From an uncultured Victivallales bacterium (GTDB lineage: Bacteria > Verrucomicrobiota > Lentisphaeria > Victivallales > UBA1829): a stretch of DNA of 64,000 nt. The notes beneath the pieces are model-generated. The model was not told the origin of the DNA. It made no database searches and saw nothing but the letters and a program-made list of their open reading frames with translations. Position 1 is the first letter of the stretch. Each line of letters opens with the position of its first letter. The DNA is taken from contig CAKUJH010000005.1 of assembly GCA_934661375.1 (NCBI GenBank), positions 2,498-66,497 of the forward strand, in the 5' to 3' direction. Of the stretch, positions 7,360-40,482 are shown piece after piece. Both the position numbers and the translations under genes were made by a program.

Positions 7360-10300
7360 GTGGGAAAAGTTACGGAATACGAGAAAATTTTAAAAAAATG
7401 GCTGAAGAAGCCGTTTTTTACCGGACGGCAACTCTGCTCGGTGGACGAGAGTGTGGTGTCGCTGCTGGTTCTTTCGCTGTACTGCCGGGAACCGGGGAAG
7501 CGTCTGCTGCTGGAAACGCCGGGTTTTGCGCTGGGGGAAAAAATCCGCGGAGAACTGCTGCAATGGGCGGCGGGACTGGGATTGACGCCGCGCGTTCTGC
7601 TGCTTCCGGACGGTTCCAGCGGCGGCAAAAAACTGATGGAATCGGAAATTCCCCGCGCTAAAGTTCTGGATGAAGTACTGAATAATCCGCCGGATATTCT
7701 GATCGTATCCGCTTCTGCCGAACTGTCGCCGGCACCTGCACCTGACCGGATGCGCCGTTCGGAGCTGATTCTGAAGCCCGGCATGGAGCTGGCTCCGGAA
7801 AAACTGGCGGAACTGCTGACAGGCATGGACTATGATGATGAACCCGAAGTGGTTCAGAAGGGCGAATTTGCCCGGCGCGGCGGACTGATTGACGTATTTT
7901 CGCCGGCGTCCGAACAGCCGGCGCGCATTGAATTTTTCGGCGATGAAATCGAATCCATCCGGCTGTTTTCGGCGCAAGCCCAGATTTCGACCGGAGAAGT
8001 TCAGGAATATAAGCTGATTATGCGTTCCGGGGCGGGTGAATCTGAATCGGTTCAGGACAGTGATTTCACGGAATATGTCAAATGCTATAATCCTCAGATT
8101 GTTACGCTGTTTCCTTCCGAATGTGTGGAGATTCTGAAACGGTTCGGGGCTGCCGGTATGCCGGAACGCTGGCTGGCGCTTCATGAAAAAGAACCCGCCT
8201 GGCGTGATTCCATCCGTCTGCTGGATGAATTGGAAAGTGCATCTGTTCCGGAAAAGGAAAAATGTATCTCCCCGGTTTTTCCGTCGGCGCGTCATATTCT
8301 GAAATTGGTTCCGGAGGGCACGGAGGAAAATTTTTCCGAGCTGATCCGCCAGATCAGTTCCAGTCTGATCCGTCAGCTTGCCGGCGAAAAATACCGGGTG
8401 CTGATAGCGGGCGGGGCAGACGGCAGTCAGAATGCTCTGCATCAATGGCTGGAGGAAGAGCATCTGGACAAGCTGGAGAATGTGGAATGTCTTCCCTTGA
8501 CGATTCCGCGCGGTGTTTTTCTGCCCGGAGAAAAACTTGCACTGTTTTCGGAGTATGAACTGTATTCTTCACCGCGGCGTCTGGCGTCCGGCAAAAAAAC
8601 GGCTCCGGAGCCTGTGGAAGAACAGGATTTCCGCAAAGACAAAGTGCGCGACGCCATCGGGGAAAGTCTTTCATCCGATCTAGAGGAGGGAGATTACGCC
8701 GTTCATCTGAACTACGGGATCTGCATTTACCGCGGGCTGAAAACCGTTTCCGACAAGCAAAGCACCTCCGAAGTGATGGAACTGGAATTTGAAGACGACA
8801 AAATTGTGTATGTTCCGATCTGGCAGTCCTATTGCGTATCGCGTTATATCGGTTCACGGAAAGGAAACGTCAAGCTGAGCAAGATCGGCAGCACCCGCTG
8901 GAATAAAACCAAATCCGACGCCGCGGATTCGGTGCGCACGCTGGCTCTGGACATGCTTCGGGTTCATGCGATCCGCTGCCGTGCGGAAGGCACGAAATTT
9001 CCGGATGACGATCTGGCACAGCATCTTTTTGAAAAATCTTTTCCGTTCACGGAAACCCCGGATCAGCTGCGCGCGGCGGAGGAAATCAAGAAGGACATGG
9101 AGTCGCCGCGTCCGATGGACCGTCTGCTGTGCGGCGATGTGGGATACGGCAAAACGGAAATTGCCATGCGCGCCGTGTTCAAGTGTGTGATGTCGGGACG
9201 GCAGGCCGCGGTACTGGTGCCGACAACGGTTCTGGCGCAGCAGCACTACTATAATTTTCTGGAACGCTTTGCGGAATATCCGGTCATCATCGAGACACTC
9301 AGCCGATTCCGCACCAAAGCGCAGCAGCGGGAAATCATTGAACGCCTGAAACATGGCAAGGTGGATGTGGTGATCGGGACGCACCGTCTGCTTCAGGAAG
9401 ATGTGAAATTCCAGAATCTCGGTCTGGTCGTGGTGGACGAGGAACAGCGATTCGGGGTCATGCACAAGGAAAAACTGAAAAATCTCCGCACCACGGTGGA
9501 TGTGCTGACGATGACTGCGACGCCGATTCCGCGGACACTGTATTTTTCGATGGCGGGGATGCGTGATCTCAGTACGATCATGAGCGCACCGGTACAGCGT
9601 CTTCCGGTGCAGACCGTGGTTTCGCAGTATGACGACCAGCTGATTGCGGGGGCGATTTCGCGGGAACTGCAGCGCGGCGGACAGGTGTATTATCTGCACA
9701 ACCGGGTGCAGTCGATCGAAGATACAGCGGAACATCTGCGGCAGATGTTTCCCGCGGCACGCATCGGGGTTGGTCATGGGCAGATGGACGAGCATCAGCT
9801 GGAAGAAGTCATGGGATCCTTCATTGAGGGAAAAACCGATATCCTGGTCAGCACCACGATCATTGAATCCGGACTGGACATTCCGAATGCGAACACCATT
9901 CTGATCGAACGTGCGGACCGCTTTGGACTGGCGGAGCTGTATCAGCTGCGCGGACGGGTTGGACGCTGGCGGCGGCAGGCGTATGCGTACCTGCTGCTGC
10001 CGAAAAACGGAATCATGTCGGGCGATGTGCGGAAGCGGATTGCCGCCATGCGCAAATACACCCATCTGGGCGCAGGGTTCAAGCTGGCTCTGCGCGACCT
10101 GGAAATCCGCGGCGCCGGCAACATTCTGGGCGCGGAACAGAGCGGTCATATCAATGCAATCGGTTTCACTCTGTACTGCGATCTGCTGCGGACGGTAACT
10201 TCCCAGCTGAAAGGCGAGGAGACCACGCTGCGCCGGGAATGCAATGTGTATCTGGACTTTGTGGAATATGCGCTGAAAGCTCCGCCCGGCAAAGCCGCCG

Positions 10301-25972: not shown

Positions 25973-27772
25973 ATGAACCTTCAATGCATACGCAGACTGG
26001 AAAAACAGCTTCAGACGGTTTTCCCGCAGGCGCAGATCCCGGCGGACTGGAGCATTGCTCCGGAACAGTGTCCCGCGGATATGAGCGGAGATGTTACCGT
26101 GAACTGCTTCCGTTTTGCCCGGATTTTCAAAGCCGCTCCCGATATGGTCGCGGAAAAAACTGTTGAACTGCTGAATGCCGATCCCGAAGTGCTGAAAGCC
26201 GAACGCATCAAGGCGTTTGTCAATATCACGCTCAAAGCCGATGCGCTGTTCCGGGATACGGTCGGAAACATTCCCGTTCTGCTTCAGGAAGGACAGCTGC
26301 CGCAGAATGCGCGCAAACGCATCCTGATCGAGTATTCCGCCCCCAACACCAATAAACCGCAGCACCTGGGACACGTCCGCAACAATACCATCGGCATGAG
26401 TGTCTGCAAACTCCTGTCCCGTGTCGGTCATGACGTTGTGCCGGTCAACCTGATCAATGACCGCGGCATTCATATCTGCAAATCCATGCTGGCATATCAG
26501 CGCTTCGGCAATGGCGATACTCCGGAAAAATCCGGAATCAAAGGCGACCATTTTGTCGGAAATTATTATGTCCGGTATAATATTGAACTGAAGAAACAGC
26601 TGGAAGCTCTCCGTGCCGCCAAACCGGAACTGGCGGAAAAATCCGATGACGAACTGTTTCTGGAAACGGAAATCGGCGCAGCCGCGCAGGAAATGCTCCG
26701 CAAATGGGAAAATTCTGATCCCGATACCGTCGCCCTCTGGAAACTCATGAATTCCTGGGTGATTGCCGGATTCAATGAAACCTATGCCCGCATGGGCGTG
26801 GAATTCCGTAAAACGTATCTGGAAAGCCAGACTTACCTGCTGGGCAAAGACAATGTCCGCAAAGGTCTGGAAGACGGCGTTTTCACCCGGCGCGAAGACG
26901 GGGCGGTCATTGCGGACTTGGGCAAGCTCGGCACAAAGGTGCTGCTGCGCAAGGACGGTACCAGCGTTTACATCACGCAGGACATCGGAACCACGCTGCT
27001 CAAACACCGGGAGTTCGAACCGGATGCCATGATCTGGGTGGTCGGCGATGAACAGATCCTTCATTTCCAGATGCTGTTCTCCATCCTGAAGAAAATGGGG
27101 CATGAATGGGCTTCGGATCTGCATCACCTGTCCTACGGCATGGTCAATCTGCCGACCGGGAAAATGAAAAGCCGTGAAGGCACGGTGGTGGATGCCGACG
27201 ACCTGTTCGATGAAATGCACGCTTTGGCGCGCACTGCGGCGCTGGAACGGGTTCCGGAAGGAACGGAACCGCCCGCCGATCTGGAGGATCGTTCCGAAAT
27301 CATCGGCATGGGCGCACTGAAATTCATGCTGCTCAAATTCAATCCGAAGACCACGATGATGTTTGACCCCCAGGCTTCGCTGAAATTCGAAGGCGATACC
27401 GGGCCGTATGTCCAGTATGTCTGCGCGCGTATTCATTCGATCGCGCGCAAAGCGGCGGAACGCGGCATCTGCGTGGATTCGGCGGCGGACTGGTCGCTCA
27501 CGGATTCCGCGGAGGAACGTTCGCTGGCGATTACGGCGGCGCGTTATCCGGAAGTTCTGAAAGCCGCCGCGGAAAAAATGGATTGTTCCGCAGTGGTCAA
27601 TTATCTGCTGGAACTGGCAAAAGCGTTCAACCGTTTCTATCGCGAAAAACAGGTGCTGAACGCGGAAAATCCGGCAGTGATCGCTTCGCGCATTGCGCTG
27701 TGTTTTGCCGTGCGCGATATTCTGGAAGACGGTCTGGCAACACTTACAATCGGTGTTCCCGAAGCCATGTAA
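25973..27772 (+). CDS. argS: arginine--tRNA ligase
   Basis: 599 aa with a HIGH-type PQHLGHVRNN, a KMSKS-type GKMKSREG, and the typical C-terminal ...PEAM. Confidence 0.95.
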   Translation: MNLQCIRRLEKQLQTVFPQAQIPADWSIAPEQCPADMSGDVTVNCFRFARIFKAAPDMVAEKTVELLNADPEVLKAERIKAFVNITLKADALFRDTVGNIPVLLQEGQLPQNARKRILIEYSAPNTNKPQHLGHVRNNTIGMSVCKLLSRVGHDVVPVNLINDRGIHICKSMLAYQRFGNGDTPEKSGIKGDHFVGNYYVRYNIELKKQLEALRAAKPELAEKSDDELFLETEIGAAAQEMLRKWENSDPDTVALWKLMNSWVIAGFNETYARMGVEFRKTYLESQTYLLGKDNVRKGLEDGVFTRREDGAVIADLGKLGTKVLLRKDGTSVYITQDIGTTLLKHREFEPDAMIWVVGDEQILHFQMLFSILKKMGHEWASDLHHLSYGMVNLPTGKMKSREGTVVDADDLFDEMHALARTAALERVPEGTEPPADLEDRSEIIGMGALKFMLLKFNPKTTMMFDPQASLKFEGDTGPYVQYVCARIHSIARKAAERGICVDSAADWSLTDSAEERSLAITAARYPEVLKAAAEKMDCSAVVNYLLELAKAFNRFYREKQVLNAENPAVIASRIALCFAVRDILEDGLATLTIGVPEAM

Positions 27773-28314: not shown

Positions 28315-28968
28315 TCAGCCGTTCAGGTTCAGCAGAGTGCGGAAATTGCGGTTCAGTATGGCGGACAGTTCTTCCGGTGTTTCGTTCCGCAATTCCGCGG
28401 TGCGGCGGTAAATGTCCGGGAGCGGAATTTTTGATTCATCCGTTTCCAGCAGAAAATCCGTGCCGGAAAGTTTTTCCGGAAAGCGGTGCAGGTGCATGAG
28501 CCAGACTGGCGACAGCGAAAGCAGACATCCGGCTTTCCGCAGAGCCATGGCGGTTTCCGGTTTTCCGCGGAATCCGTGAACCAGCCAGGGAATTTCCGGA
28601 TGTTTCCAGCACTGTTTGCGGAAATGGATGATTTCATAATGCAGCCGGACACAATGGATCACCATCGGGAGCGCGAGTTCCTGTGCCAGTTCGATCTGCT
28701 GCCGGAAAACGGCACGCTGTTTTTCCATGCGTACCGGAGCCAGCGGATCCAGCCCGCATTCCCCGATTGCGGAACAGGGGGTCTGCCGTACAGCGTTTTT
28801 CAGCTGTTCCAATGAGATGGAATCCGCGTCTTTCGGATGAATCCCCAATGAAAAATAAACTCCGGCAGGACGGCTTTCCGGCAGGAAATTCCAGTTCAGG
28901 TTGACCAGAGCGTTCTGATCCGGTTCCCGCGGGAGCCGGTGCGTGTGTGCGTCCGTCAGCGGAGTCAT
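28315..28968 (-). CDS. TatD-family metal-dependent hydrolase
   Basis: Motifs DAHTHRL, IGECGLD, MVIHCVR, HGFRG and LLETD are present. Confidence 0.85.
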   Translation of the reverse strand: MTPLTDAHTHRLPREPDQNALVNLNWNFLPESRPAGVYFSLGIHPKDADSISLEQLKNAVRQTPCSAIGECGLDPLAPVRMEKQRAVFRQQIELAQELALPMVIHCVRLHYEIIHFRKQCWKHPEIPWLVHGFRGKPETAMALRKAGCLLSLSPVWLMHLHRFPEKLSGTDFLLETDESKIPLPDIYRRTAELRNETPEELSAILNRNFRTLLNLNG

Positions 28969-32257: not shown

Positions 32258-34684
32258 TTATTTTTTCTGTTCCGGACGCAGCAGCACTACACTGTCCAGA
32301 TAGATGGCGTTGTCCTTTGTCGACCCCTTGACCCATTCCGGACCGGTGAATTTCAGGGATACCCAGCAGTCCCAGAGATTGATTTCGCGGCTGCCGTCGC
32401 CCAGCACGAACAGGTGCGCCAGTTCCACTTGAATCGCCCATCCCTGCCCCCAGAGATACGAGGCGGAATTCAGCACTTCGGATTTCGGGAACTTGTACCA
32501 GTGATACTTTTCATCCTGCGGAATCTGCGTGATGTTCATGGATGTATTGCCGAACTTGAAAAATGCCGGGGCAACATGAATGGTCTTGGTTGCGGCGATT
32601 TTTTTGCCGACGCCGTGCCAGTCCTTGTTCAGCCCGGATGCCTTGATGGCTTGTCCGTACAGCGACTGGGGATCTTCCACGATGGCAGAGCCGATGTGCT
32701 TGAACTGACGGAATTTAGACGGTCCGACCACACGCACCAGTTCCGGGGATATGCTTTTGAACTTCTGCGGAATCGGGTATTTCAGCGACAGAATCTTTAT
32801 GGTGTCATCCACGGTTTTGCGCGGACGCGTCATATCTGCGCCGTTCAGGCGGGTGATGAATTCTTCGGTGTAGAGCTTGTATTCCGCCATCAGCTGTTTT
32901 TCAGACGTGCCGATTTTGTCCAGAGCCGCCTTGTAGTCGTCGCTGTTCTGAATCATCAGATAAAGCAGCGGAATCATTTCATAGTGCAGCCGTTTCCGGT
33001 AGACGCTGCCCGGTTCGGTCAGTTTTTCGGCTTCTTTGAATTTCTGATAGGATTCCATCATGAAACGGAGGGTCATGTGCGGCCAGTTGGCGACCCGGTT
33101 GGTCAGCTGATGCTGCTTGCAGTCCCGGACGCCCTTGCGGATGGTTTCCAGGTATTCCCGGAGCATGGGAGCGGCGGGTCCGTAGTATCCGTTCATGAAG
33201 ATTTCAATCAGCTGTTCCATATCCTTTTCCGGATCCAGAGCCAGCTGGGCATACAGGAATTTGGTCATTTCGGCGAAATTCTGCACCAGAACTTCGCTGG
33301 TTTCACATTCATAGAAAACCGCCAGCACATTGCTGTCGCGGAACAGCCGGAGATCATCCTTGAATGAGTCGATGACCGTTTCAATGCGGGGCGGGTAGAA
33401 ATACCGGTCGCCGATGTTGCCGTAATCCCAGAGAGACATGCGGCCGCCGCTGTTCAGCCAGGATTTCAGCTGCGCGAGCAGTTCCTGGTTGATGCTGTGG
33501 GTGAGCGGACGGAAGCAGTCCGAACGGGAAAAGGAATCGCAATACTGCCACAGCACATTGGGGGCGGCTTTCGTGGAAACCGGCGGATATTTGACGCCGT
33601 TGTATGCCGCAAAGGTGCGGATGATCACATCCGGATATTTCTTCCGGACATTGTCCGCCAGATAATTGACCAGATCCAGCAGCAGGTCGGCGTTGGAGCC
33701 TTTTTCCTTGACCAGTTTTCTGCATTCCGGGCAGAGACATACTTTGGTATAGGAATCCAGCGCGGAGAAGTCATAGACCACCGGCCAGTCGGCGCTGGTC
33801 CCGGTTTCTCGGTCCTTCGCAATGGTTTTCAGCATGTTTTCCAGCGCAATCCGCTTGACATCCCTGTTCGTGTAGCAGTACGTGGTGTTCACCGCGGTTT
33901 TGTCAAAAAGAATCTTGGGACGAACCCGTTTGCCATGTTCGTCCATGGCAAAGTATTCCGGATGTTTCTCATACAGCGTCGGGTCGACGTAATAGGACAT
34001 GGTATGATAACCGGGGACCTGCTGCGTGAGTTTGAAGTGTCGGGAAAGATAGAACGCATCCTGAATTTCCTTGCGGCCGATGCCGTGTCCGCCGTTGTAA
34101 CGGTTGCGCAAACGGTGCAGCCAATACGCATTGACCTGTTCTTTCGGAACTTTGGTGTAGGTCATCATCCAGGGCAGCCCGTCATAGAAATTGCGTCCGG
34201 CGATGGCAGGTTTCTTGCGTTCGTTGAGCTGATTCATGGCAAGAGACGGACGGTTCGGCACGATTTCCTGATCCGGGGTGAGACTCCAGCATCCGGCTTT
34301 TTCCAGCAGGGAACGGACCGCATAATATGTCCCGGCAGGCTGTCCGCCGGTCAGGTACAGTTCATTTCCCTTGTCCAGAATCTGCCATTCCTCGTCCTGA
34401 AATACGGCAGCGTCAATGCCTTGTTCGGCAGCGGCGCGTGTATTGCCCAGATAAATTGCCGGCCCGTTCTTCTTTCCGCTTTCCGGCAGAACCGTGAATT
34501 CTGCTCCGGTCATTTTCTCCAGATACGTTTTCAGTTCATCCACTGCCTGTTTGTCCAGTCCCGCCATCCGGTCGGAATGAACCAGCACGCAGGATGCTTT
34601 CCCGTCTCTGGCAAATTCGAAGGCGTGGACGGACGCCATCATCGCCGTCATCAGAAACAGACTTGTCATCAATTTGACTTTCAT
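32258..34684 (-). CDS. secreted DUF4838-like putative glycoside hydrolase
   Basis: 808 aa with a signal peptide MKVKLMTSLFLMTAMMASVHA. It has an N-terminal A.DELKTYLEKMTG..F pattern and a CLCPEC motif, as I recall for DUF4838 proteins. Similarity is by eye. Confidence 0.6.
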   Translation of the reverse strand: MKVKLMTSLFLMTAMMASVHAFEFARDGKASCVLVHSDRMAGLDKQAVDELKTYLEKMTGAEFTVLPESGKKNGPAIYLGNTRAAAEQGIDAAVFQDEEWQILDKGNELYLTGGQPAGTYYAVRSLLEKAGCWSLTPDQEIVPNRPSLAMNQLNERKKPAIAGRNFYDGLPWMMTYTKVPKEQVNAYWLHRLRNRYNGGHGIGRKEIQDAFYLSRHFKLTQQVPGYHTMSYYVDPTLYEKHPEYFAMDEHGKRVRPKILFDKTAVNTTYCYTNRDVKRIALENMLKTIAKDRETGTSADWPVVYDFSALDSYTKVCLCPECRKLVKEKGSNADLLLDLVNYLADNVRKKYPDVIIRTFAAYNGVKYPPVSTKAAPNVLWQYCDSFSRSDCFRPLTHSINQELLAQLKSWLNSGGRMSLWDYGNIGDRYFYPPRIETVIDSFKDDLRLFRDSNVLAVFYECETSEVLVQNFAEMTKFLYAQLALDPEKDMEQLIEIFMNGYYGPAAPMLREYLETIRKGVRDCKQHQLTNRVANWPHMTLRFMMESYQKFKEAEKLTEPGSVYRKRLHYEMIPLLYLMIQNSDDYKAALDKIGTSEKQLMAEYKLYTEEFITRLNGADMTRPRKTVDDTIKILSLKYPIPQKFKSISPELVRVVGPSKFRQFKHIGSAIVEDPQSLYGQAIKASGLNKDWHGVGKKIAATKTIHVAPAFFKFGNTSMNITQIPQDEKYHWYKFPKSEVLNSASYLWGQGWAIQVELAHLFVLGDGSREINLWDCWVSLKFTGPEWVKGSTKDNAIYLDSVVLLRPEQKK

Positions 34685-34726
34685 ACCATCTCCTGTTGTT
34701 TTTTTATGTTCAGGGGTTAAAATTTG

Positions 34727-35905
34727 TCAGGACAGCAGTTTGCGGAAACCGGGGATGCGGTGATAAGTGATCCGGTTGGAATCATGGAATGTGTGCGCGC
34801 CGCGGTATCCGGTACGGCAGACAAATTCAATGTCATCGCCGTCGAACAGCCAGTCCACATACTGGAATCCGGTCAGATGCGCGGAGAAGAATTCACTCAT
34901 TCCGGTGTCATCCTTCAGAATCTGCTTGATCATGCGCCAGTTCCGCAAATCTTCGGAAACCGCCAGATCCAGCTCATGCCGTTCACAGAAATAGTCCGGA
35001 TTGTCCACATAATTGGTCAGGGTGAAATACAGTCCGGTAACGGGATCTTTGCGGGGAATGAACCGGGAGTGTCCGCCGGGGAAATCAATGATGCCGGATG
35101 CGTAATCGAAACTCAGACGCGAGCCGTCATCGGACACATCCAGAATTGCCGCTTTGTTCGGCTGCGCCAGATGAATCCGTGTCATGTATTTGAGACTTCC
35201 GTCCGGCGCTTCGATCAGATTGCCTTCCAGCCAGCCGCTGACCTGCAGCACAGGGTCTGCGTGTTTCAGCCGTCCTTCCAGCAGCCCGCTGGTCTCCACC
35301 GGCAGTTTCTGATCAGGAACTTTGGTCCGTTCAAACGGCAGCGCATTGCTTTCGCTCCAGTTGGCGGCGTCCAGCAGATCCGCATCTTCCGGAACAGCAA
35401 AAATCATGGCGCTTTCCCGGTCCGGACGGTATACCGGAGCGGTTCCGTCGGCATACAGCAGATCCGCGGGAATCATCAGTCTGCCGTTCCGGATGATTTT
35501 GGCGCAGACGCCTGTGGTGTAGTTCGGCATGGTGTACCCTTCGCTGGCTTTGCGGAGCAGACCGCTCCGGCTGTCCGTCGGATATGTCCAGGTGAGGCCG
35601 CCGTCCGTACTGCGGCGGATGACCAGATCGCCGTATTCCCGCGTAACGCCGAACAGATACAGACTGCCGCGGTGAAGGAACAGCGTTCCCCAGTACATGT
35701 TGACCAGGTGAGTGATGGAAACCCAGTCTTTTCCGTTGTTGTAAGAATGGTATATACTGGTCAAACCCGGACGGTTGTCCGCGGCGGCTGCTCCGAAGTA
35801 ATCGTGGCTCACCACCAGGGTTCCGTCCGGCATACGCACCATGGACGGTGTGCCGAGGTACGTTCCGGTCATTTCGACCTGATGCCTTATTTCTGAGAAT
35901 ATCAT
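34727..35905 (-). CDS. BNR/Asp-box beta-propeller glycosidase (sialidase-like), no signal peptide
   Basis: 392 aa. It has an Asp-box STDGGLTW and a degenerate copy (YNNGKDW). The repeat-like composition suggests a beta-propeller. Confidence 0.65.
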   Translation of the reverse strand: MIFSEIRHQVEMTGTYLGTPSMVRMPDGTLVVSHDYFGAAAADNRPGLTSIYHSYNNGKDWVSITHLVNMYWGTLFLHRGSLYLFGVTREYGDLVIRRSTDGGLTWTYPTDSRSGLLRKASEGYTMPNYTTGVCAKIIRNGRLMIPADLLYADGTAPVYRPDRESAMIFAVPEDADLLDAANWSESNALPFERTKVPDQKLPVETSGLLEGRLKHADPVLQVSGWLEGNLIEAPDGSLKYMTRIHLAQPNKAAILDVSDDGSRLSFDYASGIIDFPGGHSRFIPRKDPVTGLYFTLTNYVDNPDYFCERHELDLAVSEDLRNWRMIKQILKDDTGMSEFFSAHLTGFQYVDWLFDGDDIEFVCRTGYRGAHTFHDSNRITYHRIPGFRKLLS

Positions 35906-35965
35906 GTCCCGTGTCCTTTCTGCTCTCTGTTGCTGCTTGTCATCGGAAATTTTTTCTGATATTCA

Positions 35966-36015
35966 ATTATAATCGGAAATGGATCGGTTGACAAGTTCAA
36001 ATAGTATGATATAGT
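35966..36015. promoter_or_regulatory. back-to-back divergent sigma70-like promoters (AraC gene / BNR-glycosidase operon)
   Basis: The + strand reads TTGACA (35988-35993), a 16-nt spacer, then TATAGT (36010-36015). The - strand reads TTGTCA (35994-35989), a 17-nt spacer, then TATAAT (35971-35966). The two -35 hexamers overlap. Confidence 0.45.
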
Positions 36016-36040
36016 AGATAAAAAAGAGGATATTTAAGAC

Positions 36041-36970
36041 ATGCAGCAGGAAATATTCAATCAGCGTTTGCAGGCGGTAACTTCATCCATGGAGGCGTTC
36101 CGGGTGGGACCATTGAGTGTGAAGGTAACCAATTTTCATGATTCCCGGCGGGGCGCATTCACGACTACCGTGCATGAGCATTACTATTATGAGTTCTGCT
36201 ATGTGAGGAACAACAGCTGTATCTATCAGGTTCAGGAACAGAATATTATTTTGCAGGAAAACGACGGCCGCTGTGTCCTGATTCCGTCGGCACTGCCGCA
36301 TCTTCGGAAAGTTACCGGGAAATACAACACTCTCACCGGTTCCACGCTGGCGCATCTGCTCATAAATCCGTTTGCTCCGGAATACCAGCTGAATCTGTCC
36401 ATGTTCCGCGAGGCGATCGCCAAACGGAATTGCCAGTTCCGCTGCTCCGCTTTATTCCGGATGCTGGAAAGTCAGCTCCGGTCCATTGTGGAAAAGCATG
36501 AACCTTACTGGCAGGAATACGCTTCCTGCAAACTGCGGGAGCTGATCCTGAGTTTCTTTCAGGAAAATTTTCCGGAACTGCCCGTCAATGAAGGTGTTGC
36601 ACATGTTGCAAAAAATCAGGAAGTGATCGGGCGTCTTCTTTATATGATTGCGGTGTGGAGCAATTTTTCCATGGATGCGCGCAGTTTTGCGGAGGCGGTC
36701 GGTTTTTCGGAACGGCACCTGTCCCGGATTGTGGAAGCGGAATTCGGCATGTCTCTGGGAAAATTCATCATGCTGAAACGTCTGGAATACGCCAAGGAAC
36801 TTCTGGCAGGAAACCGGCAGCTGGTGAAAGACGTCGCCGCCACTCTCGGTTTTCACGACACCAGCCACTTCTGCCGGGTATTCCGTCATTTCTTCGGAAT
36901 TACACCGAAACAGTATGTTCAGCAACAGCAGCGCGCCGCCCGTGAACCGGAAAATGATCTGGAGGAATGA
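36041..36970 (+). CDS. AraC-family transcriptional regulator
   Basis: The C-terminal double HTH is FAEAVGFSERHLSRIVEAEFG...VKDVAATLGFHDTSHFCRVFRHFFGITPKQY. The N-terminal domain is cupin-like. Confidence 0.85.
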   Translation: MQQEIFNQRLQAVTSSMEAFRVGPLSVKVTNFHDSRRGAFTTTVHEHYYYEFCYVRNNSCIYQVQEQNIILQENDGRCVLIPSALPHLRKVTGKYNTLTGSTLAHLLINPFAPEYQLNLSMFREAIAKRNCQFRCSALFRMLESQLRSIVEKHEPYWQEYASCKLRELILSFFQENFPELPVNEGVAHVAKNQEVIGRLLYMIAVWSNFSMDARSFAEAVGFSERHLSRIVEAEFGMSLGKFIMLKRLEYAKELLAGNRQLVKDVAATLGFHDTSHFCRVFRHFFGITPKQYVQQQQRAAREPENDLEE

Positions 36971-37053
36971 CCGGATATGACAGTTTTCCGGCTTTTTTTA
37001 GCGGATTGTCGCTTCTTTCCTCTTTTTTGTCCATTTTATACCATCTTCTCCTG

Positions 37054-37081
37054 TTGTCAAAGATTCAAAAACAAATATAAT
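37054..37081 (+). promoter_or_regulatory. sigma70-like promoter giving a ~220-nt leader for the pilin-like gene
   Basis: TTGTCA (37054-37059), a 16-nt spacer, then TATAAT (37076-37081), within an AT-rich intergenic island. Confidence 0.4.
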
Positions 37082-37224
37082 ATGCTATTGAAGGCAGTAA
37101 TTTCAGAAGTCATTGACGAATGTCTATTTGAAATTGCAGATGACAACCGGGTAATGAAAAATAGAAAAAACGAAGGGAAAGAACATGGAACCGGAATTCT
37201 TATGAAACTTTTAGAAGGAGAACA

Positions 37225-37354
37225 TCGCATAACATTGATTATGTGACAGAGAAAAGATGATTTTGAGTATGAAAATAAACAGACAGAGTGAACAAGGAGG
37301 TACAAAATGAAGAAAAACAAGTTTGGCGGGTTAAACATAATCAATGTTATGCGA
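37225..37354. repeat. perfect 20-bp inverted repeat with 90-nt spacer enclosing RBS and start codon of the pilin-like gene
   Basis: Arm 1 is TCGCATAACATTGATTATGT (37225-37244) and arm 2 is ACATAATCAATGTTATGCGA (37335-37354). They are exact reverse complements. Confidence 0.9.
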
Positions 37355-38098
37355 CGGAGTTTTACACTTATAGAACTGCTGGTCGTTATAGCGATCATTG
37401 CAATTCTTGCCGGTATGCTGCTCCCTGCATTGAACAAAGCCAGACAATCCGCACAGAGAATTTCGTGTGTGGCAAATCTGAAACAGATCGGAACGCAGAT
37501 GGCGGTTTATGAAAGCGACCATCAGAGTTATCCGCTGGGATTCATGGCTGCCGGCAGCAACGACAATCAGAATTATGCCTGGCACCTGTATCTGTTCGGC
37601 AAACTGGATACCAGCATTGTCAATATCTGGTCCAAAACGCCGGCAGCTTCTCTGAAAGTGCTGAAATGTCCGAGCGACAATATTCCGGCGGACGCACCCA
37701 CTCAGCCGAAATTGTCCTACGCCTATAACCGCAACTCTTTGGGCTGGCTGAAAGCGGATGGAAAATTCATGACTCCGCCGGATGACTCCTACGGCTCGCT
37801 GAACAGCGATATCCGCAACAACCGCGGCAATAAAAGCCCGTCCAAAATCACCGTGGTGTTTGATTTCGGCTGCAAATCCCGTGCCAGCAACGCCGGCACG
37901 CAAAGTCTCCAGTGGCTGCTGCCCATCGGGTCTTATACCCTGGGCGGACTTAACGATCCTGATGCATCCCACAAGTCCGGCTCCAACTGGATGTTCTGGG
38001 ACGGCCATGTGGAATGGCTGAGACCGCACGCCATGGATGCGACCGCATTCACCTTGAAATACCTCTACAACGGGAAGAATTTCTCCCGTTACTGGTAA
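37307..38098 (+). CDS. prepilin-type N-terminal cleavage/methylation domain protein with H-X9-DG motif (DUF1559-like pseudopilin)
   Basis: It has [27 protein letters not shown] and a C-terminal [12 protein letters not shown] (H-X9-DG). AAGGAGG lies 7 nt before ATG 37307. An alternative start is ATG 37349 ([11 protein letters not shown]). Confidence 0.85.
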
Positions 38099-38172
38099 GC
38101 TTCAGAACACGACATTCCTTCCTGCGGGGGGAGGAGTGTCTTTTGCATTTCAATACAGAAAGCCGCATACGC

Positions 38173-40482
38173 ATGAACAAGCAAAATTACAAACCACTGC
38201 CGTTCTATTTCATCAACACGACAAAACCGGAAGAACTGGACGCAGCAACGGCGGAAAGACGTCTGCGTGATCTGGCGGACGCCGGATTCGGTGGAGCCGT
38301 TCTGTTCAACAAACCGCCGGACGGATTTGACCGGGAACAGTATCTTTCCGAATTCTGGTTTGAAACGATCGGTCATTTTCTGGCAGCCGCAGAGAAACTG
38401 CATCTGGAAATCTGGATCAATGACGGCTGGGACTATCCGCCGGGCGATGCGGGGAACCGGATTCGGGAACGTGCGCCGGAACTGGTTCAGATGCGGCTGA
38501 CGCTGAAAGACGGCGAAGCGGTGCCGGTGGTCTGTTCCTGGGGATTCCCCGCTTTCGAGGAACCGGAAAGTTCGCGTCTGTTCATCGAACTGGTTTATGA
38601 AGAATACAGAAAACGTTTCCGGAAATATTTCGGGAATGTGCTGCGCGGTTTCTTTTCCGACGCCGACAACCGGCGTTACAACCATTTCACCCGTGCGGAA
38701 ATGAAGGGAGAACGGTATTATCCGTGGTCGCGGAATTTCGCCGCGGTTTTTCAGCGGAAATATGGTTATGACATCCTGCCACTGCTGAAAGAAATCATGA
38801 CGGATGAAAAGCACCCGGCGTCGCTTCACTACTGGGAACTGGCTTCGGAACTGTATCAGAACTGGTTCCGGAACAACTATCAGTGGTGCATCGCCAACGG
38901 GTTGGAATATGCGTTCCACACATCGGATACCGGACCGTTTCCTTATGCGCAATGCGACCGTTCTTCGGTGTTCACGGAAGGTGAAACCCTGCGTCTGCTG
39001 TCCTGGTCAAGCCGTCCGGGAACGGACCATGAGCTGGCGGAGCTGGACGGCGGCACGCATTATGACAGCCGCTACTTCACCCCGAAGGCGCAATACGGCG
39101 GCAGCTGCACGGTCAATCCGCATTTTCATCAGACGAAATGGGATCTGCGCGCCAAGTATGCGGCGTCCGCGGCATGGCTGTACGGACGCGAACGCGTATT
39201 GTGTGAAGCCTTTGCCGCGACCAACTGGAGTTCTTCGCCGGAACTGCTGCGCCGGATTGCCGCCTGGCAGATCATGCAGGGAATCAATTTCTTCATTCCG
39301 CACGCGGTTCACCATGTTTTCCGCGGTGCAACGAAAATTTTTGCTCCGCCGGAACTGCTGCATCTGCCGGGAATCCGGGAACTGAACGGTTTTCTGGAAA
39401 AATATTCCTTCATTGCGGCGCAGGGAAAATACGCTGATCCGGTCCGGATTGCTGATCCCACCCGGAAAATCTGGCAGGGATCGCAGGACAGCATTTTTGA
39501 TCTGTGCGATGAACTGTCCCGCCGGGCAGTCAATTATGTGGTCGTTCCGGACGGTTCAGAGAATCCGGATATTCCGGAAGAGTTTGCCTCGTTTGACGGC
39601 GGAGAGCTGGCATGGATGCTTCGGGAACTGGCGGACGGGACACGCTATATTCTTGCCGCGAATATCTGGGCGGATCGTGAGCTGTCCGGAACGCTGGTCT
39701 TCAACGGCAGGAAATATCCAGCCGCCTTTGCTCCGGGCGAAATCGGCGTATTCGGCGGTCCGTATGAATGCTGGCGCAGAAGTACGGCGGTTATCTGCTG
39801 CCGGGAATTACCGATGCCCTGTCCAGTGCAGTGGAATCAGCTGAACAACATCACGCTTTTCCAGCCGGGAGAGTTCACGGTTGAGGAAAAAGTCGGGGAA
39901 CTCCGTCTGCTGGTTCCGGCGGGAACGGATGTCCGGCTGGACGGCGCAGCGTTTCCCGGCGGGAAACCGTGTCCGGTTTTTGATGATGCGTACACGGAAT
40001 ATGTGTTTGAGCCGGAACCGGGTGTTCATAAGCTGGATTTTTCCGGTGTTCAGGCACATATGCCGGTCTATCTCCGGGGCGGATTTGATGTGAGTACGGA
40101 ACAGCTGGTGTTCCAGAGTTACGAAATGAGCGTAGCGGCTCCGGCATTGCGTCTTTCCCCGCGCCGGAAACAGCTGTCTGCCGGCTCCTGGGCGGATCAG
40201 GGACAGGTTTTCTATTCCGGCAGCGCGGATTATTTTTTCACGGCGGAGTGTCTGGGAGAAAACGCGCTGGAAGTGTTCACTGCGGGAAACACAGCGGAAC
40301 TGTTCATTGATGAAGAACCGGCGGGCAGACAGGTCTGGGCACCGTACGAGTTCCGCTTTCCTGCACTGCACGGCAGACATGAATTCCGGGTCCGTCTGAC
40401 GAACACGAATGCCAATCAGCTGGAAGGCTGGCGTGCGGTTTCGGGTATTCTTGCGCCGCCGCGGCTGAAAATCATATCCTGA
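38173..40482 (+). CDS. large putative glycoside hydrolase (GH106-like/unassigned TIM-barrel family), no signal peptide
   Basis: 769 aa from ATG 38173. N-terminal PLPFYFINTTKPEELD...LADAGFGGAVLF...YLSEFWFE...LHLEIWINDGWDYPPGDAG resembles the N-terminal pattern of a widespread 'glycosyl hydrolase' family. I cannot assign the family by eye. Confidence 0.6.
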   Translation: MNKQNYKPLPFYFINTTKPEELDAATAERRLRDLADAGFGGAVLFNKPPDGFDREQYLSEFWFETIGHFLAAAEKLHLEIWINDGWDYPPGDAGNRIRERAPELVQMRLTLKDGEAVPVVCSWGFPAFEEPESSRLFIELVYEEYRKRFRKYFGNVLRGFFSDADNRRYNHFTRAEMKGERYYPWSRNFAAVFQRKYGYDILPLLKEIMTDEKHPASLHYWELASELYQNWFRNNYQWCIANGLEYAFHTSDTGPFPYAQCDRSSVFTEGETLRLLSWSSRPGTDHELAELDGGTHYDSRYFTPKAQYGGSCTVNPHFHQTKWDLRAKYAASAAWLYGRERVLCEAFAATNWSSSPELLRRIAAWQIMQGINFFIPHAVHHVFRGATKIFAPPELLHLPGIRELNGFLEKYSFIAAQGKYADPVRIADPTRKIWQGSQDSIFDLCDELSRRAVNYVVVPDGSENPDIPEEFASFDGGELAWMLRELADGTRYILAANIWADRELSGTLVFNGRKYPAAFAPGEIGVFGGPYECWRRSTAVICCRELPMPCPVQWNQLNNITLFQPGEFTVEEKVGELRLLVPAGTDVRLDGAAFPGGKPCPVFDDAYTEYVFEPEPGVHKLDFSGVQAHMPVYLRGGFDVSTEQLVFQSYEMSVAAPALRLSPRRKQLSAGSWADQGQVFYSGSADYFFTAECLGENALEVFTAGNTAELFIDEEPAGRQVWAPYEFRFPALHGRHEFRVRLTNTNANQLEGWRAVSGILAPPRLKIIS

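Follow-up and report, generated by a model that had tools for sequence, protein, structure and literature searches.

In Escherichia coli fimS (FimB/FimE) and in the invertible promoters of Bacteroides, surface structures are turned ON and OFF by DNA inversion between short inverted repeats. In the Piv system of Moraxella, which uses a transposase-like recombinase, the inversion junction lies inside a type IV pilin-class gene, and alternative C-terminal segments are exchanged in a region of about 2 kb. The fim system is summarised in the report on cwpV of Clostridioides difficile (PMC2784873). The cwpV and other RecV-dependent switches are small leader elements with a promoter upstream and repeats of about 21 bp, and the recombinase gene is not nearby (PMC2784873). 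In the partial intergenic invertons of gut bacteria (PhaVa, Chanin et al., PMC10028968; Milman et al., PMC9881135), one arm is intergenic, the other lies in a coding sequence (CDS), and the 5′ end of the gene is altered. Here, we report an invertible segment of 90 bp at the start of a gene for a DUF1559 (H-X9-DG-type) pseudopilin in an uncultured Victivallales bacterium (Lentisphaeria). The gene lies in a stretch of 64,000 nucleotides (hereafter, the window; contig CAKUJH010000005.1, positions 2,498 to 66,497). The segment occurs in both orientations in natural populations, and its arms and flanks are unchanged. We consider it likely, with a probability of about 0.8, that the two arms are oppositely oriented sites of a small site-specific inversion switch, which flips the Shine-Dalgarno (SD) sequence and the start codon, is served by a recombinase in trans and shares its design with switches in relatives.

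The fimS and Bacteroides elements flip a promoter, whereas at the present locus the promoter is predicted to stay in place, and inversion moves the ribosome-binding site together with the start codon. Unlike the Moraxella system, the segment offers no alternative coding segments. In logic, the switch is closest to the cwpV-type leader switches, with which it shares the features given above. However, the cwpV segment contains neither a promoter nor an open reading frame (ORF), and it acts through an intrinsic terminator in its OFF RNA (PMC2784873), whereas the window segment holds the SD, the ATG and nine codons, and one arm lies in the ORF. Assignment to the cwpV type was therefore rejected: the segment has a coding payload, and neither a terminator in the OFF state (sequence of the inverted contig L040) nor an orientation-specific promoter was found. 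Since arm 1 lies in the 5′ leader and arm 2 inside the CDS, the segment overlaps the gene partly and is a partial intergenic inverton in the sense of PMC10028968. The described members of that class are mostly long and shufflon-like and swap coding domains, whereas here 90 bp carry the translation start of a single gene. The search of Milman et al. required repeats of ≥22 bp that join two CDSs on opposite strands (PMC9881135); because of these two requirements, the present switch would have been missed by that pipeline. In the Ureaplasma parvum mba locus, where XerC acts (PMC3599477), and in the Mycoplasma agalactiae vpma locus (PMC2268961), short sites at or in the 5′ ends of surface-protein genes are inverted by a Xer-like tyrosine recombinase, which results in phase variation. 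There, several genes are shuffled through a single expression site, whereas here each gene has an ON/OFF cassette of its own. As far as compared, the arm sequences show no relation, and the systems belong to a different phylum and a different gene family.

Phase variation by invertons is itself known. New is the combination of an SD and start-codon payload, a site in the CDS of a cleavable leader, dif-like sites with locus-specific centres and a multi-locus DUF1559 family in gut Lentisphaeria. The mechanism is unusual in that the translation start, not the promoter, is flipped and in that one site lies in the CDS of a disposable leader peptide. Neither Lentisphaerae nor Victivallis is mentioned in the two inverton surveys compared (PMC10028968, PMC9881135), so the inverton reported here is from a phylum absent from these surveys, and a full-text literature search found no paper that mentions both Victivallis and invertons.

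The segment and its two orientations

The features of the locus are collected in Table 1. The two arms are exact reverse complements at 20/20 positions and are separated by 90 nt. No longer or better inverted repeat with arms within 1.5 kb was found in the window. When the 20-mer was searched with up to three mismatches, only the two arm positions were found in the window, against an expectation of 0.02 from shuffled sequences, and none of 100 shuffled sequences contained two or more matches. Thus, the repeat is real and far beyond chance. A first-pass annotation of the window, made from the sequence alone, had described this repeat as unlikely to arise by chance. It had also placed AAGGAGG and ATG 37307 within the segment and arm 2 in codons 10-16 with an in-frame ATG 37349; these coordinates hold. 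The promoter that it had called good is the top sigma-70-like match of the region (a consensus match, from which the start site is predicted only), and the copy of this promoter in the OFF-state contig L040 (3078-3105) is unchanged.

Table 1. Features of the switch in the window, and arms of the related loci
Feature	Position	Strand	Remark
Inverted-repeat arm 1 (IRL), TCGCATAACATTGATTATGT	37225-37244	+	5′ leader; unchanged in both orientations
Inverted-repeat arm 2 (IRR), ACATAATCAATGTTATGCGA	37335-37354	+	codons 10-16 (N-I-I-N-V-M-R); cleavable prepilin-type leader
Invertible segment, 90 bp	37245-37334		forward in window; exact reverse complement in other assemblies
Left site, 28-bp Xer/dif-like core, ACATCGCATAA / CATTGA / TTATGTGACAG	37222-37249	+	from sequence and comparison with reference dif (PMC3025954)
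Right site, 28-bp Xer/dif-like core	37330-37357	-	orientation opposite to left site
Shine-Dalgarno AAGGAGG	37294-37300	+	inside segment; 6 nt ahead of ATG 37307
Start codon ATG of ON orientation	37307-37309	+	inside segment; chosen by gene callers in all forward contigs
In-frame ATG within arm 2	37349-37351	+	without SD; chosen by gene callers in inverted contigs
Predicted sigma-70-like promoter, TTGTCA-16-TATAAT	37054-37081	+	11/12 consensus matches; upstream of both arms
DUF1559 / H-X9-DG-type pseudopilin gene, 263 aa	37307-38098	+	Pfam; FTLIELL N-methylation motif at 37361-37381
Terminator-like hairpin and T-run, tail TTTTGCATTT	38111-38150	+	consensus match only; 13-pair stem, 6 GC pairs
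Locus L022			arms 25/25 bp; spacer 76 bp
Locus L023			arms 26 bp; one central mismatch
Locus L024, gene 1			arms 22/22 bp; tandem duplicate retains in-gene arm only
Locus L028			arms 21 bp
Locus L036-L038			arms 18/19
Locus L032-L035			arms 17/19; gene broken
Locus L039			start ATG within arm; gene broken

The same annotation had called the gene pilin-like, and this was borne out by Pfam. The 263-aa ORF matches N_methyl (PF07963) at 30.7 bits (cut-off 21.2) and SBP_bac_10/DUF1559 (PF07596) at 44.9 bits (cut-off 23.3); an N-terminal methylation motif followed by a DUF1559 domain is the arrangement of a pseudopilin. Homologues are named Lentisphaeria/Victivallis DUF1559 or type II secretion proteins, and the family search gave more than 6,000 matches. 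The terminator-like hairpin after the gene suggests a mainly monocistronic unit. DUF1559 pseudopilins are a very large family in Lentisphaeria and related Planctomycetes-Verrucomicrobia-Chlamydiae (PVC) bacteria, and to our knowledge their function is not known. The switches give an experimental handle on this role. Moreover, heritable ON/OFF switches on single members suggest fluctuating selection by phage, host immunity or substrate.

Orientation was analyzed in public gut-metagenome assemblies by exact-protein look-up of a long form (start 37307) and a short form (start 37349), since inversion of the segment takes ATG 37307 away from gene callers, which should then begin at ATG 37349. The long form was found on contigs in 61 index blocks, and all ten places fetched (L001-L010) were forward. 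The short form was found on seven contigs (L011-L017). In five of these (L012-L016), the 90 bp was the exact reverse complement between intact arms, apart from one single-nucleotide polymorphism (SNP). L017 begins 10 bp upstream of arm 2, and the inverted arm-2 junction alone is visible. L011 is a mixed scaffold from one sample, in which the left junction is forward and the right junction inverted, with an N gap between them. Scanning of Joint Genome Institute (JGI) metagenomes for the pair of arms added one forward contig (L025) and one inverted contig (L027), together with L026, which is the same record as L014. In the 90% protein cluster, the 373-aa members P0252 and P0254 are exact read-throughs from ATG 36977 over the flipped segment into the gene, and the inverted state was confirmed in DNA for L040, a 58-kb contig that runs through the switch, and for L041.

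With the 15 cluster members listed, of 38, forward forms are present on at least 71 contigs and inverted forms on at least 10 verified contigs. P0246, the short form of a diverged allele, is present on five further contigs, which are probably inverted, as judged by protein form only. The forward state is about 5-7 times commoner than the inverted state among contigs. All copies belong to one species, with flanks 98.9-100% identical. An invertible segment whose inversion removes the SD and ATG from the sense strand had been one of two options in the first-pass annotation, and it is directly supported by the exact reverse complement between unchanged arms in independent assemblies.

In the inverted contig L027, the SD is mutated from AAGGAGG to AAGGATG (equivalent to window position 37299). 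The change may be neutral, or the start cassette may be decaying while it is OFF.

The consequences for the gene were predicted from the sequence. The fixed promoter would transcribe a leader of about 220 nt. In the ON orientation, which is that of the window, the mRNA would carry a strong SD-ATG in frame with the pseudopilin gene. In the OFF orientation, the cassette of SD, ATG 37307 and codons 1-9 would be flipped, and the SD and ATG would be on the antisense strand. The ATG 37349 in arm 2 would then be the sole nearby start, and translation would be lost or strongly lowered. The OFF context upstream of this codon is TTTTCTCTGTCACATAATCAATGTT-ATG, which contains no SD. In the OFF sequence of L040, no promoter-like or terminator-like site is created. 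Orientation-dependent expression, namely a translational ON/OFF switch, would be the most economical reading. Arm 2 lies in the leader portion that would be cleaved off, and hence the DNA site could be conserved without constraint on the mature protein.

At the window locus, the OFF frame is open from upstream ATGs (37202 and 37241) into the pseudopilin gene. The upstream "gene" of 89 aa (or 94 or 54 aa) that begins at 36977 (36977-37246) is probably just leader. In the OFF orientation, this ORF fuses in frame with the pseudopilin (36977-38098), which gives the 373-aa calls, and a 1-bp indel near 37198 alters its length between strains. Thus, one gene is annotated as 263, 249 or 373 aa depending only on the orientation of the switch. 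Leader swapping was considered as a general design and rejected, since stop codons occur in the flipped segment at four of seven family loci.

The relation between orientation and ancestry was analyzed in the flanks. In the SNP tree, inverted contigs fall in separate clades among forward contigs, and in the SNP table the inverted state is present on at least five flanking haplotypes, which differ both upstream and downstream. Over 800 bp downstream, the forward window and the inverted contigs L012-L015 carry the same haplotype. The inverted contig L016 is identical downstream to the mixed scaffold L011 and differs by one SNP from the forward contigs L003 and L004. In L040 and L041, the inverted state is present on an allele with a gene body 96.6% identical to that of the window. 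Orientation is decoupled from the flanking haplotype, a pattern that fits repeated inversion, and we infer that inversion is reversible within one clone. The tree and the SNP table argue against a single lineage-specific inversion, though not fully, because of an allele association at position 37250.

This position, which carries an A/T SNP, is six bases inside the segment and one base past the end of a Xer-type arm of canonical length (11 bp). T is present in every inverted copy and in the mixed scaffold L011. The copies with A are all forward, and T is also present in the forward contigs L004 and L007 (Fisher p = 0.002, uncorrected for relatedness). The A allele may bias or lock the switch ON, or the SNP may merely mark ancestry.

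Related switches and the dif-like sites

The first-pass annotation had proposed a search for similar repeats at related pseudopilin genes, and seven other DUF1559 loci with the same layout were found. Thus, eight loci share this layout in their DNA: the window locus (WIN), L022, L023, L024 gene 1, L028, L036, L032 and L039. In all of them, the arm in the gene has its inverse counterpart 75-90 nt upstream, and the arms enclose at least the SD. Leaders of many further proteins, with only about 35-55% identity elsewhere, also contain the arm-2 peptide N-I-I-N-V-M-R-R.

In the seven paired loci, 19 arm positions were compared. Eleven are invariant (ACATA...TTATGCG), seven central positions show compensatory changes, and one varies on one side only. 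Arm complementarity is 98.2% of cells paired, a value that was reached in none of 500 shuffles. The centres of the partners are identical in five of the seven paired loci, and L023 and L032 have one central mismatch each. Between loci the centres differ, except that those of WIN and L022 are the same. The same arm consensus and switch design would control other DUF1559 genes in related gut Lentisphaeria, and all the switches of the family are probably served in trans by one recombinase.

The arms resemble dif, the site of the Xer recombinases. On the leader strand, each arm is CGCATAA-N6-TTATGT, in which CATAA and TTATG form a dyad around 6 bp (CATTGA in the left site of the window). Two partly dyad-symmetric arms with a 6-bp centre are the core layout of Xer/dif sites. 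CATAA-N6-TTATGT occurs in the window only in the two arms, against 0.01 expected. The reference dif sequences (PMC3025954) are GGTGCGCATAA-TGTATA-TTATGTTAAAT for E. coli, ACTTCCTAGAA-TATATA-TTATGTAAACT for Bacillus subtilis and CACGCCGATAA-TGCACA-TTATGTCAAGT for Frankia alni. Thirteen arm positions are the same in all three, and by manual count the left site matches 11 of them. Its identity to E. coli dif is 17/28, and the outer arm bases differ. In the L039 arm, 16 contiguous bases are identical to the E. coli dif core. Two partly symmetric arms, a 6-bp centre and the inner bases ..CATAA-N6-TTATGT.. are thus shared with dif/XerCD and the pdif sites of Acinetobacter (PMC3025954, PMC9947245). 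However, the window arms are not the single chromosomal dif, the match covers the inner 6-8 bp per arm, and Xer binding is putative. The pdif modules also differ in carrying kb-sized plasmid cargo, compared with the 90-bp translational switch here.

Pfam annotation of the whole window revealed no recombinase (Phage_integrase, Resolvase or transposase-type domains), and none was found within ±10 kb of the family loci where the contigs reach that far. The lack of a recombinase gene in the window had been noted in the first-pass annotation and stands. It had been taken there to weaken the case for inversion, and this part did not hold, as recV is not near the cwpV switch that it inverts either (PMC2784873). 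Phase-variable inversions in Ureaplasma are driven by Xer-type enzymes (PMC3599477), and on Acinetobacter plasmids oppositely oriented pXerC/D pairs with identical spacers invert reversibly (PMC9947245). From the form of the sites, the chances are about even, perhaps slightly better, that the enzyme is a trans-acting Xer-family tyrosine recombinase, either the housekeeping enzyme or a paralogue.

For tyrosine recombinases, the central regions of two partner sites must be identical. This requirement would account for centres that co-vary within a locus and mostly differ between loci. Locus-specific central regions of 6-7 bp would keep different pseudopilin loci from recombining together. An extended form of this model is rather unlikely, though worth stating: the ordinary chromosome-dimer-resolution enzyme (XerC/XerD or a single Xer) would be co-opted as a genome-wide phase-variation engine. 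Many DUF1559 genes would each have a dif-like pair with a private centre, one site of which is concealed in the CDS of the cleavable leader, and each such gene would flip its SD and start codon independently, with no rearrangement between loci. If this is true, the many pseudopilin genes of gut Lentisphaeria could be ON or OFF in varying combinations.

Alternatives to a site-specific switch

The other option of the first-pass annotation was an RNA helix. In that case, the primary function of the repeat would be at the RNA level, where the arm helix would govern the choice of start, the efficiency of translation or processing by RNase III; inversion of the DNA would then be incidental. Folding, which had been suggested there, did predict the helix in the ON RNA. 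It dominates the predicted fold (z = -4.5), ATG 37349 is buried in it, and the loop that it closes contains the SD, which is mostly unpaired (P unpaired 0.78), and ATG 37307 (P unpaired 0.67). Arm complementarity is kept by compensatory changes across the loci, and a C-to-T change in the left arm at two loci would still pair as G-U in RNA. However, an RNA helix needs complementarity alone, yet 11 of the 19 arm positions are invariant and match the recombinase-site consensus. DNA inversion was seen directly, many times and on different backgrounds; the predicted fold of the real OFF RNA no longer favours the arm helix; and 36900-37500 matched no Rfam model at E ≤ 1. A role in start choice or RNase III processing is not needed for the data, and we regard an RNA-level primary function as improbable. 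The helix would be a by-product of transcribing two sites, and its function in RNA at most secondary. Much less probable still is a mobile-element scar, in which the repeat would be the terminal inverted repeat of a miniature inverted-repeat transposable element (MITE) or similar element at the gene start. A segment of about 100 bp that ends in short, perfect inverted repeats has a MITE-like outline, and the first-pass annotation had allowed for a multi-copy MITE. However, the 20-mer is at two positions only in the window, and in 596 Gb of reference genomes it was matched singly in the unrelated genomes of Thioglobus and Methylovulum only, which is about chance by our estimate. There is no plasmid or phage similarity, the flanks (...GAACA / CGGAG) show no target-site duplication, the segment holds the gene's own SD and start, and the segment and central arm sequence differ for each related locus. 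A MITE or multi-copy element is effectively refuted by the copy number, the lack of plasmid or phage matches and the lack of a target-site duplication.

A rare inversion independent of a dedicated enzyme (RecA-mediated or by template switching) might also have occurred once or a few times and spread by recombination. The result would be a polymorphism and not a programmed switch. The T at 37250 common to all inverted copies, the lack of a recombinase in the window and the excess of forward contigs are in line with this explanation. On the other hand, the T is also present in the forward contigs L004 and L007 and in the mixed scaffold L011. For efficient homologous recombination, 20 bp is usually just the minimum or too short, yet with only this repeat the inverted state has reached at least five haplotypes, including the 96.6%-identical gene allele. 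Moreover, seven other genes keep the same pair of sites with a consensus like that of a protein-binding site, which is not expected of chance repeats. This explanation therefore has a low likelihood, similar to that of the RNA-level function. That the inverted copies are assembly artefacts is hardly credible. Inverted repeats can confuse assemblers, and the inverted contigs L016 and L017 are short and end at the switch. However, the source records are from k119, k127 and k141 assemblies, SPAdes NODE records and Logan, and k is more than 20 in every assembly; hence, the 20-bp repeat cannot produce the misassembly. Identical inverted junctions were obtained from at least nine samples and with different assemblers, and one of them is in the 58-kb contig that runs through the switch.

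Several points weigh against a site-specific inversion switch as we propose it. The enzyme is wholly inferred, there being no recombinase in the window or, as far as the contigs reach, in the 10 kb on either side of the family loci, and the resemblance to dif is limited to the inner 6-8 bp per arm. At the other family loci, the ON orientation alone was seen; since long-form proteins led to these loci, an ascertainment bias is present. That both orientations coexist within a clone is deduced from one mixed scaffold (L011) and from haplotype sharing. With T at 37250 in every inverted copy, one ancestral inversion spread by homologous recombination between strains retains some probability. It is also conceivable that an OFF product with a long aberrant leader is made from the ATGs 37202 and 37241.

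Variant loci and gene surroundings

Some of the related loci depart from the simple switch. L024 (4145-5047) contains two tandem DUF1559 genes. The first has the full switch, and the second is a duplicate that begins within the spacer. The arm of the second gene is direct to the in-gene arm of the first and inverted to the upstream arm. With these arms, the whole first gene could be inverted (865 bp) or deleted, which is a shufflon-like potential. The annotation of the metagenome-assembled genome starts L024 gene 1 at an internal ATG despite the ON switch. In L032 (9933-10748), the pseudopilin is split into ORFs of 80 and 173 aa, and in L039 (124-921), where the left arm has a 5-bp duplication, into ORFs of 63 and 163 aa. 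These two may be decaying switches on pseudogenes, or the breaks may be sequencing errors. P0150 was considered as an OFF-state candidate and rejected, since it is another ON-state locus, with the start codon inside the arm (L039). In L036 (about 9918-9936) and the equivalent left arm of L032, the sequence CGTATAAT... contains a perfect TATAAT box inside the arm, produced by the C-to-T change. At these loci, a promoter element may overlap the recombination site.

A second class of long leaders (MKNNLKQHD...IGS; L029-L031) is outside the switch family, and no inverted repeat was detected at L029 (10001-10050). This leader type is recurrent in DUF1559 proteins (P0025, P0038, P0097, P0123, P0136, P0139 and others). 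A profile search with the leader alignment gave mostly short fragments at contig ends, and it served for motif variants and not for counts of family size. Very many of the DUF1559 proteins matched were 36-86-aa fragments at contig ends; near-identical DNA that encodes one stretch of 28 residues in many paralogues probably breaks the assemblies. Among related DUF1559 proteins, the leader length ranges from 2 to more than 60 residues. Glycine is usual before the motif at prepilin cleavage sites. In the window and in homologues, the residue preceding FTLIELL (37358-37360 in the window) is S, N, K or Q, not glycine.

In the window, two overlapping strong promoter-like sites are present on opposite strands at 37033-37081, namely TTGTCA-16-TATAAT on the plus strand and TTGACA-16-TAAAAT on the minus strand. 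The latter would read antisense into the gene of an AraC-family regulator (36041-36970). A 16-bp perfect inverted repeat, TCACGGATTCCGCGGA, is located at 27498-27513 and 28564-28579 with its arms 1050 bp apart, and it may be due to chance.

Pseudopilin genes with a switch are repeatedly found just 3′ of an AraC, GntR or LacI-type regulator (window, about 32258-40482; L022, L023, L029, L032 and L036). Downstream of them are very large glycoside-hydrolase-like or unannotated proteins (GH106, DUF4838, 700-1300 aa). The order of regulator, pseudopilin and glycoside hydrolase resembles a polysaccharide-utilisation cassette.

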